A stretch of DNA of 32,249 bases from Chlamydiia bacterium. Lineage in GTDB: Bacteria; Chlamydiota; Chlamydiia; Chlamydiales; 2-12-FULL-49-11. Position numbers: made by a program. Of this stretch, positions 9,001-15,000 are shown one piece after another. Position 1 is the stretch's first letter; each line of letters begins with the position of its first letter. The stretch lies in contig JBIKLZ010000008.1 in NCBI GenBank assembly GCA_044359535.1, forward strand, positions 1 to 32,249, read 5' to 3'.

Positions 9001-12000
9001 AACCCCTATTCATACTCCCTTAAACTCCCCATCCCTTCACTGGTATAAAGAGCTTTTTTCTAATGGAGAAATTTGGGTTGCCTTTTTTAACTCGATGATT
9101 GTTTCATTGAGTTCAACAGCATTAAGCATTCTCCTTTCTTTGCTTTTAATTTACTATAAAACTGTTGGAGGAAAGATTCAAAAATGTATCCCCCTTTTTT
9201 ACGGCAATATCATGATTCCAGATACCCTTCTTGGGATTGCCTTACTTAGTTTTTTTTCAATGATGAATATTTCTTTAGGACTTACCACAATTATTATCAG
9301 TCATACGGTTTTAGGGCTGGGCTTAACAATTCCTTTAATTTCAATGCGCTTTAAAGATCTTTCCCCTTCTCTTTTAGAAGCATCGGCTGTTCTTGGAGCC
9401 TCCTCATGGACAACTTTTAAAAAAATTGTCATCCCATTTATGATGCCTGCCCTTTTTGCTACCTCTTTGATTGTTTTCATCCTCTCTTTTGATGACTTTG
9501 TCCTTGCTAATTTTTTTGCGGGCCCTTCAGCACAAACCCTGTCTCTTTTTTTGGTGGGGTCTTTAAGATTTGGGATTTCCCCTGTAATAAATGCCCTTAC
9601 CACCTTTATCCTTCTTTTTACAACCCTTATCATTGCCTTTTTATTCCTATTTAAGAAAAAGGAGAAGCTCCAAACATGAAACACCCCATTAGAATTCTTT
9701 TTACCCTCCTTCTTTCATTTTTTATCCTTGGATCTATTCAATTAATATCAAACTTTTCCCCTACATCTAAAAAAAATGAACTCCATATTTCTGTCTATAA
9801 TGACTATCTTGATTTAGATATGATTGATGCCTTTACTAAAGAAACGGGGATAAAAGTTCACCTCCATTTTTTTAATTCTAATGAAGAACTGATCACAAAA
9901 ATCCAATTTTCAAAAGGAGAAGGGCTCGACCTTCTTATTCCCTCTGATTACACTTGTAAAATTTTAGCCGATAAAGGGGTTCTTCAACCCATAGATAGAT
10001 CGAAGTTAGATTTTTTAGATAGAATCTACCCTTTTCTCCTCAATAAGGATTTTGATAAAGGAAACAACTATTCTATCCCTTACACATGGGAGGCCTATGG
10101 AATCCTTTTTGATCCTAATCAGCTACAAATGAAAGAATTCACAATAAATGATTATTTTAATCCCTCTTTCCAAAAGGTGATGACAGGGGATTTAATTGAA
10201 GCAACATCGATTGCTTCCTACACCCTTTATAAAGATAAAAGAGATTTATCCGAGGGTGAAATTGAAGAACTAACCTCCTTTTTGAAAACTCAAAATAAGA
10301 GTGTGAGAGCCTATGCCGATTTTCGAGGTAAAGATATTGTTGCATCGACAAGCGCTGCCTATGGGATGGTAAAAACCTCTTTTTTAGATGCTATCCATAG
10401 AGAAAATCCCCACCTAAAGTTTTCTCTTACAAAGGACACTTTTTTTACAAGCATTGAAAATGTGGTAATCCTTAAAAAGTCAAAAAACCTTGATCAGATC
10501 TACACATTTTTAAATTACATCTACAAAGCTGAAAATTTAGCACTTACTGCAAATCTTTTTCCTTGCTATCCAGCATGCGAAGATACCTTTGCTCATCCAA
10601 ATAACCACTGTGATCTCTATTTTGATACTATAGAGGAAATAAAGTTACGCCCCTTACAGATGCAACTTTTCTACTACTGCTCTGATCCGGAAAAGGTGCG
10701 CAATATGTTTATTAAATCAAAAGTGTAATACGGCTTTTTCAAGCCGTATTACCTATCCTCACTACTTTTGAAATAGCGATTGCTTGCTGATAATATAAGA
10801 GATGACATCTCCTACAGTTTTTAAAACTTTTGACTCTTCTTCACTAATTTCTATATTAAGTCTTTCTTCAAATGTCATTATCAGTTCTGTTAAATCTAAA
10901 GAATCTGCATTTAAGTCCTCTACAAAGGATTTATCTCTTGTCACTTCAGCAGGGTCAACACCAAGTTGCTCCACAACGATATCAATCACTTCCTTTTCAA
11001 TTTCTTTTTCAATATCTTCCATATTTTTCCTTATGTTTTGTTTTTTTTCCACTATGAAGTCATTCCTCCATCTACAACAAGAGTATGCCCCGTAATATAA
11101 GAAGCTTGCTCACTTGCCAAAAACAAGACTGCATCGGCTATCTCTTTTGGTTGTGCACACCTTCCGATAGGGATCATCTCCTCTACTTTTTTTTTGTTTT
11201 CTTCACCTAAAAAATCAATCATCTCTGTTTCTGTATACCCAGGGGCTACACAATTCACAGTTACCCCCCTTCTAGCAAACTCTTTAGCTACAACTTTTGT
11301 AAAACTCACAATAGCTCCCTTTGAAGCACCGTAATGGGCTTGACCAGGATTTCCTCCCATAACACCGCCTGCTATAGAAGAGATGTTTACAATACGCCCC
11401 CCTTTATTCTTAATAATGTTTCTAGCAAATGCATAGGTCATATTATACACAGACTTAAGATTTGTATCCAGAACATGATCCCAATCCTCCTCTGTGATTT
11501 TTAAAAGCAAAGCATTTTTTGAAATTCCAGCATTATTAACTAAAATGTCTATGTGACCCCATTGTTCCAGTAAAAGAACTGAAAATTCTTTTACCTGTTT
11601 ATGGTCGCTTACATCCAATGAATAAAAACTTACATCCCCCTTAAGTTCTTCAAGAACCAAAGCTCCACGATCTCTCGATCTGCCTATAATAGCAACTGTA
11701 GCTCCTTCTAGTAAAAATTCTTTTACAATGGCAAGTCCAATACCCCTTGTTCCCCCGGAAACAACGACCTTTTTATTTTCAAACCGTTTCAAATAAATTC
11801 TCCATATCTTTTACCTCTTGAATACAAAAAGTTTCCCCTTTCAACCCCATTTTCTTATTCATTGTACTTAGCTGAGCAGGTCCTATTTCTATATAGTCGA
11901 CATTTAACCCCTCCATTGTATAGACACAATCAAGCCATCTTGTCCTTTGAGTCATTTGATCGATTAAATGTTGCTTGATAGAATCCACCTTAGTTTCCCC

Positions 12001-15000
12001 TTTGCCTGTTAGATTCATTATACAGACAATATTTGAATCTATGAGGGGACACATCCAAATCGCTGGGGCCAATTTTTCTTTCGCCTTTTCCATATAGGAA
12101 GTATGAAACGCGCCACTTACATTAAGAGGAATGACCCTTTTTGCCCCAATTGCCTTTAAATCGCTCTCTACATCTTTTAAATCCATTTTACTCCCCCCAA
12201 GAACAATCTGACCTGGGGTATTTATATTGGCAATTTGATATTTTTTAGGGATTGCTTCTTCCTTTAAGCCAATGACAGCAACCATTGCTTGAGCAATATC
12301 CATCGTTGCTTCATCCATATAGCGCCCCCGAAGAGAGATTACCTTTAAAAGATCTTCAAAAGTCCCTTTTTTTGATGCGACAAGACTTGCATATTCTCCA
12401 AGGCTTAATCCAGATGTAACCGAGGGTTTGATCTCCGGGTTTTGAGACTCCAAAACCTTTAAAATCGCAATCGATGTAACAAATAAAGCGATCTGACAAA
12501 AATCTGTTCTTTTTAAACTCTCTTCATCTGAAGAAAAAATCTTTTTTGCAATATGCATTTTTAAAATCTCTTCAGACAGTTGATATATTTCCTTAGCTTC
12601 TACATAGGTATCATAAAATGATTTCCCCATAAAAGGCTTTTGCGCTCCTTGTCCAGGAAATATAAAGGCCTTTTTTTTCACCATGTTTCCTTTTTAAGAG
12701 CTATTCTATCCGATGTTTACCAAAAAATTCACGATATTTTTTTTCAATCATTGAAGAATATCTTAAAAGACTCTACTCTTTTGCTCTAATTAAAAAAAAA
12801 TAGGCCCTTTTATGAAATATCCAAAACCCCTCCTTACCCTTATTAGTAACCTTCAAAAACTTCCTGGTGTAGGAAAAAAAACTGCCGAAAGATACTGCTT
12901 TGATATTCTTTCTTGGAGCAAAGAAGATCTTGATACTTTTGCCTACCACCTTTTTGAATTAAAGAAAAAAATTGGGACATGCGATGTATGTCAAGCCCTT
13001 TTAGACCTTTCTGATCAAAAGGGTTGTCCATTTTGTGACGAAACAAAAAGAGACAAAACTCACCTGTGTATCCTTTCCTCTCAAAAGGATCTTTTTGCCG
13101 TAGAAAGCACTCACATGTTTCTTGGGATGTACCATATTTTAGACGGCCTTCTTTCACCCTCTAACCATTTTTCTCCAAAAGATCTTCATCTAGATCGCTT
13201 AAAAGAGCGCATTCTAACCCTTGGAACAAAAGAAATCACTTTAGCCCTTGATGCCACTTTAGAAGGAGATGCAACCTCTCTTTTTTTAAAAAAAGAATTA
13301 GAGCCACTCAATGTGAAAATTTCAAGACTTGCTCTTGGAATGCCCATTGGAGCTTGTTTGGACTTTATTGATGAAGGGACCCTTTCAAAGGCTCTATCAG
13401 AAAGAACTGTATTTTAATAAATCAACCTTCTACAATGTAAAAAAAAAACCCACTTTTAAGAGATCCAATGAAAAAAACCCTCCTATCTTTACTTCTTAGT
13501 TTTTGCTTATCCCTTAATGCTGACCTAACAAAATATGATTCTTTTGAAAAGGTTCACGTTGAAGAAATTACCGTTACAATCACAAATAATTCAGAGCCAA
13601 ATTCCCCTGTAAAAGAAAAGGTCTTAACTCAAATCGCCCTAAAAAAAGGGGACCTTTTTAATCAAAGTGAATTTGATAAAGATCTCCATCTTTTGTCAAA
13701 AAAATATCAAAGCGTTGATCCAGAAATTAAAAAATACAATGGAAAACTCTACATTCATTTAAACATCACCCTAAGACCTACAATTGTTAAATTTATTGTT
13801 AACGACACTGTTTACAGCACCAAAAAGATCCTTGATAAGGGGGATTTAAAAGCACCTATGGAGTACAATAGAGCTCAATTCTATCAATCCATTACAGATA
13901 TTAGAGACTTTTTAATTAAACGGGGTTATTTTAAAGCAGATGTCTCTTATAAAGTTGAAGAAATCCCAGGAACTCAAAACGCTATTGCTCACATCACAGT
14001 CAATGCCGGTCCTTTGGGTCACATTAATGACATTGAGTTCATAGGGTTTACAAAAGAGGAAAAAAGTGCCGTCTACGGGATGATCAAGACCTCTAAATTT
14101 AACATTCTTACAAACTGGTTAACAGGAAGTGGGATACTTCGTGATGCAGATAAAGATCGCGATCAACAAGCCATTACTCAATACATACAAAATGAAGGCT
14201 ACATTGATGCAAAAGTCGAAATGATCCTTAATGAGACTGAAAAAAACAAGCTTTCTCTTACTATCTCCTTACAAAGAGGCCCTCTTTATCGCATAGGAGC
14301 TATTAAGATCAAAGGTAATACCCTTGAATCTTCAGAAGCTTTGAGCAAAAACCTCCTTATTAAAGAAGGGGATGTTTTTTCTGCTGTGAAGATCTACCAC
14401 ACACAAGAGCAAATTAAAAATGTGTACACTAAACAAGGGTACCTTGATACCAGTGTAAACTACGAGCTCATCCCTCAAGATGACCTTAAGTACACAGTTG
14501 TTTATACCGTAGAAGAATCTGAAAAGTACAAAGTGGGTTTAATTGTTGTTTCTGGAAACACTCGAACCGATAATAACGTCATCTATCAAAGGACTGATAT
14601 AGTACCAGGGGAGGTTTTTGATGCCTCCAAGATGAAGTCAACACAACAAAGACTGCAGGCAAGTGGCTATTTTAAAAATGTCAGTGTCTATGCAATAAAA
14701 AGCGATCACCTTCAAAGTCCTGATAACCAATACCGAGATGTTCGGATTGAAGTAGAAGAAAATAGAACAGCTAATTTTCACCTATCTGCAGGGGCTAACT
14801 CTACAACAAATATCTTTGGGGAAATAAGCCTTACTGAAAATAATTTTGATCTTAGCGGCCTTACAACCTTCTGGACAGAAGGGGTCAATGGATTTAGGGG
14901 TGCTGGGCAATATTTTGATCTCAAAGGGATGTTTGCTTCCAAAGAACAAAGCGCCACCCTTTCTTGGATAAACCCCTACATGAATGATTCTTTATGGAGA

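Follow-up and report, generated by a model that had tools for sequence, protein, structure and literature searches.

FASII without FabH has already been described, in Wigglesworthia and Ca. Organicella extenuata. Both are host-associated, tiny-genome obligate symbionts that, according to PMC8204192, keep PDH, ACC, FabD, FabF, FabG, FabZ and an enoyl reductase, and in which an elongating KAS is inferred to have replaced FabH (Organicella has FabB as well as FabF). The chlamydiae studied here keep the same enzymes and invite the same reading, but their genomes measure 1.0-1.9 Mb, they have one FabF and fabH-bearing sister species, and the gene was lost several times independently. The chemistry proposed below, in which decarboxylation of malonyl-ACP or transfer of acetyl yields acetyl-ACP for a Cys-His-His KAS to extend, is shared with P. 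putida F1 FabB and with fabH mutants of L. lactis and E. faecalis. These mutants retain some de novo synthesis, attributed to side reactions of FabF/FabO (PMC13372179); initiation by the FabB of P. putida proceeds through decarboxylation (PMC10869286), and S. pneumoniae FabF elongates acetyl-ACP (PMC8666670). According to PMC10869286, P. putida FabF1 and FabF2 and E. coli FabB have no major part in initiation, so self-priming is enzyme-specific. Elsewhere, self-priming by a KAS I/II is a back-up in mutants or belongs to FabB; here it would be the natural and sole route, through FabF. FabY and MadA/MadB (the latter in passages of PMC8666670) solve the same initiation problem.

In C. trachomatis, KAS III is the predicted initiator. 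Its FASII, LpaT and AasC, as presented in passages of PMC6167442, match what we find in gene content, fab order, FabI, PlsE/PlsC and an Aas-type ligase near fabF. The same passages give C. trachomatis FabH and BCKDH, branched 15:0, no unsaturated acids and a split AasC, whereas the genomes described here have neither FabH nor BCKDH, possess a desaturase and encode an Aas fused with an internal ACP. A literature search for loss of fabH within Chlamydiota found no published case, and passages of PMC3991601 contain none either; genome tables accompanying chlamydial MAGs may already reveal it.

The window, a stretch of 32,249 nucleotides analysed as a whole, belongs to one such chlamydial genome (G000). 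Its features are collected in the table.

Table. Features of the window around the former place of fabH.
Feature	Position	Strand	Evidence and remarks
acpP, acyl carrier protein	10762..11052	-	PF00550 E 9e-12; 0 amino-acid changes vs L209
fabG, 3-oxoacyl-ACP reductase	11052..11792	-	TIGR01830 E 2e-80; dN/dS 0.11 vs L209
fabD, malonyl-CoA:ACP transacylase	11779..12684	-	PF00698; TIGR00128 E 4e-71; dN/dS 0.17 vs L209
divergent intergenic region, former fabH place	12685..12811	.	127 nt; no coding remnant
recR	12812..13417	+	RecR/Toprim Pfams; recR-fabH-fabD order in relatives
bamA, synteny anchor	13468..15840	+	POTRA + Omp85
lpxD, uses 3-hydroxyacyl-ACP from FASII	16602..17681	+	TIGR01853 above cut-off
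pdhC-pdhB-pdhA, acetyl-CoA source and lipoyl-dependent enzyme	18713..21988	-	Pfam
accA, acetyl-CoA carboxylase subunit	24579..25421	-	NF004344 and TIGR00513 above cut-off

Throughout the family, recR is the conserved left neighbour of fabH. Here fabD and recR diverge from an interval of 127 nt that leaves no room for a fabH of about 330 aa, and fabD has become the first gene of the operon. Short blocks of this interval resemble the fabH-recR spacer of a fabH-bearing sister (G007). The interval may function as a promoter; a scan of it for the sigma-70 consensus returned no site. The FabD motifs (GLSLGEY, Arg, GAFH) are those of fabH-bearing relatives. A metagenome contig from an independent assembly (L209) spans the junction, 98% identical and gapless over 6903 nt, and in four lake runs compared with it neither a false joint nor a loose end appeared, one of their contigs (X7, 12566-13052) bridging the junction. 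Together these data rule out an assembly artefact. The deletion is real.

Nor was a KAS III found elsewhere in the genome, in agreement with the genome-wide survey's note. PF08541 had no match in G000 (E<=10). Nineteen KAS III proteins of the family were combined into a profile, which, searched unfiltered against all 5657 ORFs of >=50 aa, placed none above the inclusion line, its best match being FabF (E 0.04); and tblastn with the same 19 proteins gave nothing better than E 0.001. The genome, 92.6% complete, thus shows no KAS III, and synteny supports deletion, a relocated copy in the unassembled remainder being improbable.

The note's counts were reproduced: KAS III occurs in four of eight congeners and in 12 of the 13 other genomes of the family. 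The loss had been placed in this species and its two closest relatives. fabD does adjoin recR inside contigs of G010 and G012, probably the two relatives meant, but G005 and G008 show the identical junction, also inside contigs, which brings the fabH-less junction to five of the nine genomes of the genus. A single clade-level loss is rejected, because single-origin trees fail with two marker sets (AU p 8e-5 and 2e-6). A joint loss in G008 and the G000 clade is compatible with the data (p 0.13), so two losses are the minimum within the genus; fabH was lost there on at least two branches, and probably on three. The fabD-recR junction without fabH recurs in G129, a 95% complete genome of another chlamydial family, and G004, which lacks recR as well, is a less secure fabH-less case. 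KAS III was found in 393 of 400 genomes across the order (G026 being unscored for KAS III and BCKDH) and in 380 of 384 outside the family, only four having no match. G257 and G341 lack KAS III and fabD while fabF is present, which we read as assembly gaps, and G307 is without fabH, fabD and fabF; the three were left out of the loss count. fabH has been lost independently several times in uncultured lake-dwelling chlamydiae.

The rest of FASII is kept, as the note had it. Beyond the window we found accB, accC, accD, fabI, acpS, birA, fabZ, lpxC/A/D, a PlsE-like gene and cmk-plsC, the names of several resting on a motif or on tblastn with a relative; ACC, FabD, KAS I/II, FabG, FabZ, enoyl reductase and ACP are all intact. 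fabG and fabD are under purifying selection, and pathway decay is unsupported, since dN/dS of the fab genes lies inside the neighbours' range (0-0.18, one strain pair). This genome has one KAS I/II, FabF, and one Aas; FabF is the sole thiolase-fold protein found. It scores 457 bits with NF005589 (cut-off 387) and 479 with TIGR03150, slightly below 494, and retains the triad Cys171/His311/His348 (stop-to-stop numbering). PF00109 gave one match in four of the five fabH-less genomes of the genus and in G004 (none is assembled in G005), and PF00108 retrieved FabF itself and nothing else in four of five genomes tested; thus neither a second thiolase-fold protein nor an initiator of the FabY, OleA or thiolase type was found. 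No substitution in FabF, FabD, FabG or AcpP is common to all loss lineages (FabF of G005 is unassembled).

To explain these results, we lean towards an account in which FabF primes itself through acetyl-ACP, in cells that had lost branched-chain primers beforehand and have a desaturase. fabH would have been cleanly excised several times while FASII went on starting chains de novo with its one FabF. Malonyl-ACP would come from ACC and FabD, and part of it FabF would decarboxylate to acetyl-ACP, or else FabF would take the acetyl from acetyl-CoA; it would then condense acetyl with further malonyl-ACP, and FabG, FabZ and FabI would finish each cycle. Lipoate would draw on the resulting C8-ACP, lipid A on 3-hydroxyacyl-ACP and PlsE/PlsC on the long chains. 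The fused Aas would meanwhile use its internal ACP to attach fatty acids from the host to lysolipids, lowering demand and not priming FASII. An earlier loss of BCKDH would have left FabH without branched primers and made its own loss tolerable. In fact, BCKDH is absent from all six fabH-less genomes of the family and was not found when looked for in G129; it is also absent from 11 of 16 fabH-bearing family genomes (chance about 0.17), and 42 of 110 genomes of the order, nearly all of which keep fabH, gave no strong match. These figures hint weakly that BCKDH loss was permissive. Fluidity could come from a DesA-like desaturase, encoded in 21 of 22 family genomes (G004 is without it), and we therefore dropped obligate uptake of host unsaturated acids.

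Lipoate bears on where chains start. LipA scores over its cut-off in all six fabH-less family genomes, with an intact frame in G004, and its conservation within the clade (77%) compares with that of FabF (79%). A GcvH-like protein was found in four of five genomes tested (not G004). A single-domain LplA-family protein beside clpC has a Cys..Lys motif in five of five tested, and the motif is present in 120 of 120 among the homologs listed. As a putative LipM, this protein was judged by the residue spacing of LipM, on which our literature search returned no text. Three of these 120 bear the automatic name LipM, most named ones being called lipoate-protein ligase; the PDB matches are ligases, and a single-sequence AlphaFold model (pLDDT 31) was unusable. 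In C. trachomatis the ortholog beside clpC is said to have acted as a ligase, and LipA reportedly failed to complement. By sequence, the retention of LipA, a LipM-like transferase and mostly a GcvH-like protein points softly to home-made octanoyl-ACP, and the set is presumably active.

The note had argued that chains must be primed otherwise, most simply from host fatty acids loaded by Aas. The need for another priming stands; the Aas route is weakened, because a retained LipA set would need C8, which long host chains cannot give, and because of the architecture of Aas itself. On that route FASII would work as an elongase, the ligase of Aas loading host fatty acids onto free AcpP for FabF to extend, with lipoate salvaged. 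There are precedents: during infection, C12/C14 acids loaded by the AasC of C. trachomatis undergo elongation (PMC6167442), and E. faecalis can get round the loss of fabH with exogenous acids (PMC13372179). For lipoate, salvage is assumed in C. trachomatis, de novo synthesis there being unknown (PMC5049849). Moreover, every loss lineage encodes Aas, and aas lies two genes from fabF, the two being near neighbours across the family. Yet the C. trachomatis ligase that feeds FASII is encoded separately, and E. coli Aas, a fusion, is unable to feed the pathway (PMC6167442). Aas of G000 joins, in 939 aa stop-to-stop, an acyltransferase, an internal ACP and an AMP-binding ligase; frames of 908-952 aa occur in 19 of 21 family copies examined (G011 is cut by a contig end, G001 is longer, and the partial G016 was left out). 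It is thus unlike the separately encoded AasC, and also unlike E. coli Aas, a two-domain fusion of 719 aa without a carrier of its own, whereas the chlamydial protein has about 920 aa with the ACP between the two parts and scores 206 bits with NF005959, whose cut-off is 886. The internal domain aligns with AcpP by hhalign (95.5%, E 1e-8) and is PP-binding in Atlas; its Asp-Ser does not vary among the 58 homologs aligned, and the motif is found in 21 of 21 aligned family copies and 115 of 120 homologs. With its own carrier, the fusion probably directs fatty acids from the host into lysolipid repair rather than into FASII, as expected from the acyltransferase-ligase fusion of E. coli, an extrapolation from a two-domain to a tri-domain enzyme; our literature search found no study of the acyltransferase-ACP-ligase fusion, which is common in environmental chlamydiae. 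Neither G000 nor G010 nor G012 yielded a second acyl-ACP or acyl-CoA ligase (in G000 the one further AMP-binding protein sits in the men operon), PlsX is lacking too, and Aas is 72-80% identical between congeners with no difference between fabH-bearing and fabH-less ones. Taken together, we regard priming by Aas-loaded host chains as unlikely.

Less likely again is a priming previously undescribed, with FabF collecting chains from the ACP domain of Aas or Pta turning acetyl-phosphate into acetyl-ACP; if true, it would explain why fabH was lost repeatedly here and hardly at all in the rest of the order. We are just as sceptical, or slightly more so, of an unrecognised initiator making acetyl-ACP, be it Pta, a small hot-dog protein encoded beside menE or a hypothetical protein. 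Excerpts of PMC13372179 do present malonyl-ACP decarboxylation as undemanding, such that a dissimilar protein could acquire it. The survey had left non-homologous initiators unsearched; of those now sought besides thiolases, MadA/B (PF09500 hot-dog) was found in none of 10 genomes (G000 and nine others; the E. coli control was positive) and PlsX in none of the 22 family genomes. The protein beside menE is YbgC/4HBT-like, not PF09500. Pta is kin to PlsX and as an initiator would perform PlsX-like chemistry on acetyl-phosphate, but we know of no Pta that acts on ACP. It is mainly genus-specific (7/9 genomes, against 0/13 in the rest of the family), and most losses fall in this genus; against it, three fabH-bearing genomes (G006, G009, G011) have Pta too, and none was found in G008 (68% complete) or G004, both fabH-less.

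A direct hand-over, in which host acyl groups carried by the ACP domain of Aas would pass to the active-site Cys of FabF for condensation with malonyl-AcpP, seems very doubtful. The internal domain does have a genuine ACP fold, and fabF and aas are near neighbours; however, FAS enzymes read acidic residues of ACP helix II, in which the internal helix (DSMDIATMYTYVDSH) is less rich than that of AcpP, the same Aas architecture occurs in fabH-bearing chlamydiae, and the route would give no C8. That fabH merely moved into unassembled DNA is hardly credible: the genomes are 68-95% complete and a recR-fabH block may fall in a gap in G004, but relocation would need a move plus non-assembly in all five junction genomes of the genus and in G129, in an order where a KAS III match is so rarely lacking outside the family.

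Self-priming by FabF, which we prefer, touches on a broader question, namely what enables an elongating synthase to start chains. So far knock-outs have been studied and in symbionts the answer has only been inferred; fabH-less and fabH-bearing sister species (for example G000 versus G007/G009) provide matched FabF pairs in which it can be asked. Finally, the gene complement suggests that the lipids of these bacteria are unlike those of textbook chlamydiae, straight-chain and desaturated rather than branched.

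fabH, whose product KAS III usually initiates FASII, was said in the genome-wide survey's note to be deleted from the fab operon, and the junction bears this out. Only 127 nt separate fabD from recR in the window gene order, the order in fabH-bearing relatives being recR <- fabH-fabD-fabG-acpP. L209, an independent metagenome contig, crosses the fabD-recR junction gap-free at 98% identity, and four further runs showed neither a joint nor a loose end there, one contig spanning it. In short blocks, the spacer is similar to the one between fabH and recR in the relative G007, a likeness consistent with the coding sequence having been excised and its upstream region retained; no sigma-70 consensus site was scored in the 127 nt. 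Since unrelated genes have been inserted between recR and fabH or fabD in several genomes, the interval may be an insertion/deletion hotspot. As the note had also held, we found no other KAS III in the genome: PF08541 had no match at E<=10, a family profile built from 19 sequences and run unfiltered had FabF as its top match (E 0.04), and tblastn found none.

The loss is not confined to this species and its two closest relatives, as first thought. In fact, KAS III is present in 16 of the 22 family genomes, and in five of the six without it, namely the window's own genome (G000), its relatives G010 and G012, and also G005 and G008, fabD directly adjoins recR within a contig. In G004, which belongs to a different genus, fabD and bamA are separated by an unrelated gene; recR is missing too, which makes this a weaker case. 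Two trees, one of 14 proteins mostly from the fab region and one of LipA, PdhA and Aas, each require four changes, at least three of them on starred branches, and both place G005 as sister to fabH-bearing G007 (SH-aLRT 100). A single clade of the five fabH-less genomes of the genus was rejected (AU p 8e-5 and 2e-6), as was G005 grouped with the G000 clade (p 9e-4); G008 grouped with that clade was not (p 0.13). Thus, fabH was lost at least twice, and probably three times, within the genus. The copies still present there have kept the ancestral position; their likeness to one another is 61-65%, versus 54% to G018, a pattern that fits genes kept, not regained.

In the wider order, scoring of 400 genomes that are at least 85% complete found KAS III in 393 (380 of 384 outside the family; G026 was left unscored). 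G129, a 95% complete genome of another family, is a further independent loss: one contig runs lpxD-ompH-bamA-recR and, past an unrelated gene, fabD, fabG and acpP; FabF and a fused Aas are also present. G257 and G341 also lack fabD and were taken as gaps. G307 (0.8 Mb, 90% complete) is without fabH, fabD and fabF and is possibly a chlamydia without FASII altogether.

The rest of the pathway is in place, as the note had stated for ACC, FabD, FabF, FabG, FabZ and FabI: we found accA-D, birA, bioY (named from sequence), fabD, fabF, fabG, fabZ, fabI and acpS, together with lpxC/A/D, a PlsE-like acyltransferase, cmk-plsC and PDH. Against L209, fabG has a dN/dS of 0.11 and fabD one of 0.17, both inside the 0-0.18 span of neighbouring genes.

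Features of the fab region and of related loci (window positions, or genome:contig and locus handles)
Feature	Location	Observation
acpP-fabG-fabD	window, leftward from 12684
recR	window, start 12812
acpP	window 10762-11052	of 19 aligned family AcpPs, 16 have Gln three residues past the phosphopantetheine Ser; Leu only in G000, G010 and G012
accA	window 24579-25421	about 35 N-terminal residues of family models missing; frame overlaps upstream YkuD gene; similarly short in G017
bioY-like gene	G000:C10:19913-20506	between fabF and aas; adjoins fabF in several congeners; different small genes at this position in other genera
aas	G000:C10:20766-23582 (L148:166-2982)
DesA-like desaturase gene	G000:C52:2242-3402 (L244)	adjoins ATP/ADP translocase-like gene
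long-form pta with ackA	G000:C53:72664-75917
unrelated genes in recR-fabH/fabD interval	L046:9842-13386 (G009); L057:4083-5090 (G004); L253:8120-9808 (G129)
second, divergent KAS III-like gene, outside fab operon	L019 (G009:C2); L018 (G011:C17); L017 (G021:C1)	flanks named from sequence: oxygenase-like/ATP-grasp-like in G009; before NAD-dependent epimerase-like gene in G021

How, then, are chains primed? We lean towards FabF, the elongating synthase, both producing and extending acetyl-ACP. FabF of S. pneumoniae is reported to elongate acetyl-ACP (PMC8666670), P. putida FabB to initiate through decarboxylation, the FabFs of that species mattering little (PMC10869286), and E. faecalis and L. 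lactis mutants in fabH to keep low de novo synthesis (PMC13372179). No substitution marking an adapted FabF was found in common to all loss lineages.

The note had instead proposed, as the simplest route, that Aas loads host fatty acids on ACP and FabF extends them. Aas is indeed present, but as a fusion with its own ACP domain between acyltransferase and ligase. A GLDS motif is found in all 21 family copies aligned (the partial G016 copy was left out) and in 115 of the 120 homologs listed, and Asp328-Ser329 is invariant in the 58 aligned from those 120. The internal domain matches AcpP in hhalign (95.5%), and the Atlas model has matches among PP-binding folds; Pfam alone sees it weakly (E 0.059). 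In being fused the protein is like E. coli Aas, whose acyl-ACP is described as unable to enter FASII, and unlike the split C. trachomatis AasC, which releases acyl-ACP, C12/C14 being elongated in infection (both in the Yao and Rock review, PMC6167442). Most likely, we infer, the ligase acylates its own tethered carrier and the chain then passes to the acyltransferase. The architecture is identical in fabH-bearing relatives and therefore did not arise with the loss. It is common in environmental Chlamydiota, its Atlas cluster has Planctomycetota members, and a limited literature search found no study of it.

Lipoate may also speak against host acids as the primers. All six family genomes without fabH encode a LipA scoring above cut-off, and a GcvH-like protein is present in four of five tested (missing from G004); the LplA-family protein adjoining clpC consists of one domain, in which an invariant Cys is followed 15 residues later by a Lys. 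Three of its homologs bear the automatic name LipM. The de novo lipoate route described for S. aureus runs from FASII octanoate by way of LipM, GcvH and LipA (PMC5049849; PMC13692748). If the set works likewise here, C8-ACP would be home-made, since it cannot derive from C14-C18 host acids. C. trachomatis LipA, however, reportedly does not complement in a surrogate host. Because of this, and because that species is believed to salvage lipoate, its de novo synthesis being described as unknown (PMC5049849), the argument is of moderate weight, not decisive. On balance, host-acid priming through free AcpP appears unlikely.

Known alternative initiators, non-homologous ones having been left unsearched in the note, did not turn up: MadA/B are absent from the ten genomes searched, no thiolase besides FabF occurs in five tested, and PlsX (PF02504) is missing from all 22 genomes of the family (f1). 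Hot-dog matches were solely FabZ and the thioesterase adjoining menE, plus one weak match in G012 (E 0.08). Pta, in seven of nine genus genomes and none of 13 others in the family, is possibly gained with AckA at genus level, and that it or another unrecognised enzyme initiates seems quite improbable. That the Aas carrier hands acyl chains on to FabF is hard to credit, and a fabH relocated into unassembled DNA harder still (1.21 Mb, 57 contigs, 92.6% complete; the window is contig C56).

Self-priming by FabF and use of host lipids are compatible, not exclusive. By its gene order and by the names given to homologs, the genome belongs with environmental Chlamydiia. We read host dependence from the phylum; of 24 metagenome runs listed with the window stretch, 22 are lake-water and two freshwater.

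Why might the loss be tolerated? Without branched primers FabH would add acetyl alone, for which acetyl-ACP could substitute. The fused branched-chain keto-acid dehydrogenase (BCKDH) E1 that supplies them occurs in five of 22 family genomes; each of the five has KAS III, and none belongs to the genus. At E<=1e-110, 68 of the 110 genomes compared across the order gave a match, whereas G129 did not. As 11 of the 16 fabH-bearing family genomes also lack BCKDH, its loss is at most a permissive condition. C. trachomatis makes no unsaturated acids, whereas a DesA-like desaturase is encoded in 21 of the 22 family genomes.

For Wigglesworthia and Ca. Organicella, a FASII complete save FabH has been described, FabB/F being inferred to substitute (PMC8204192); a Thermotoga control likewise gave no PF08541 match at E<=0.001. 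A literature search of partial coverage, supplements not included, found no report of fabH loss in Chlamydiota. Although FASII without FabH is already in print for other bacteria, the repeated loss of fabH beside fabH-bearing sisters makes the present case more useful.
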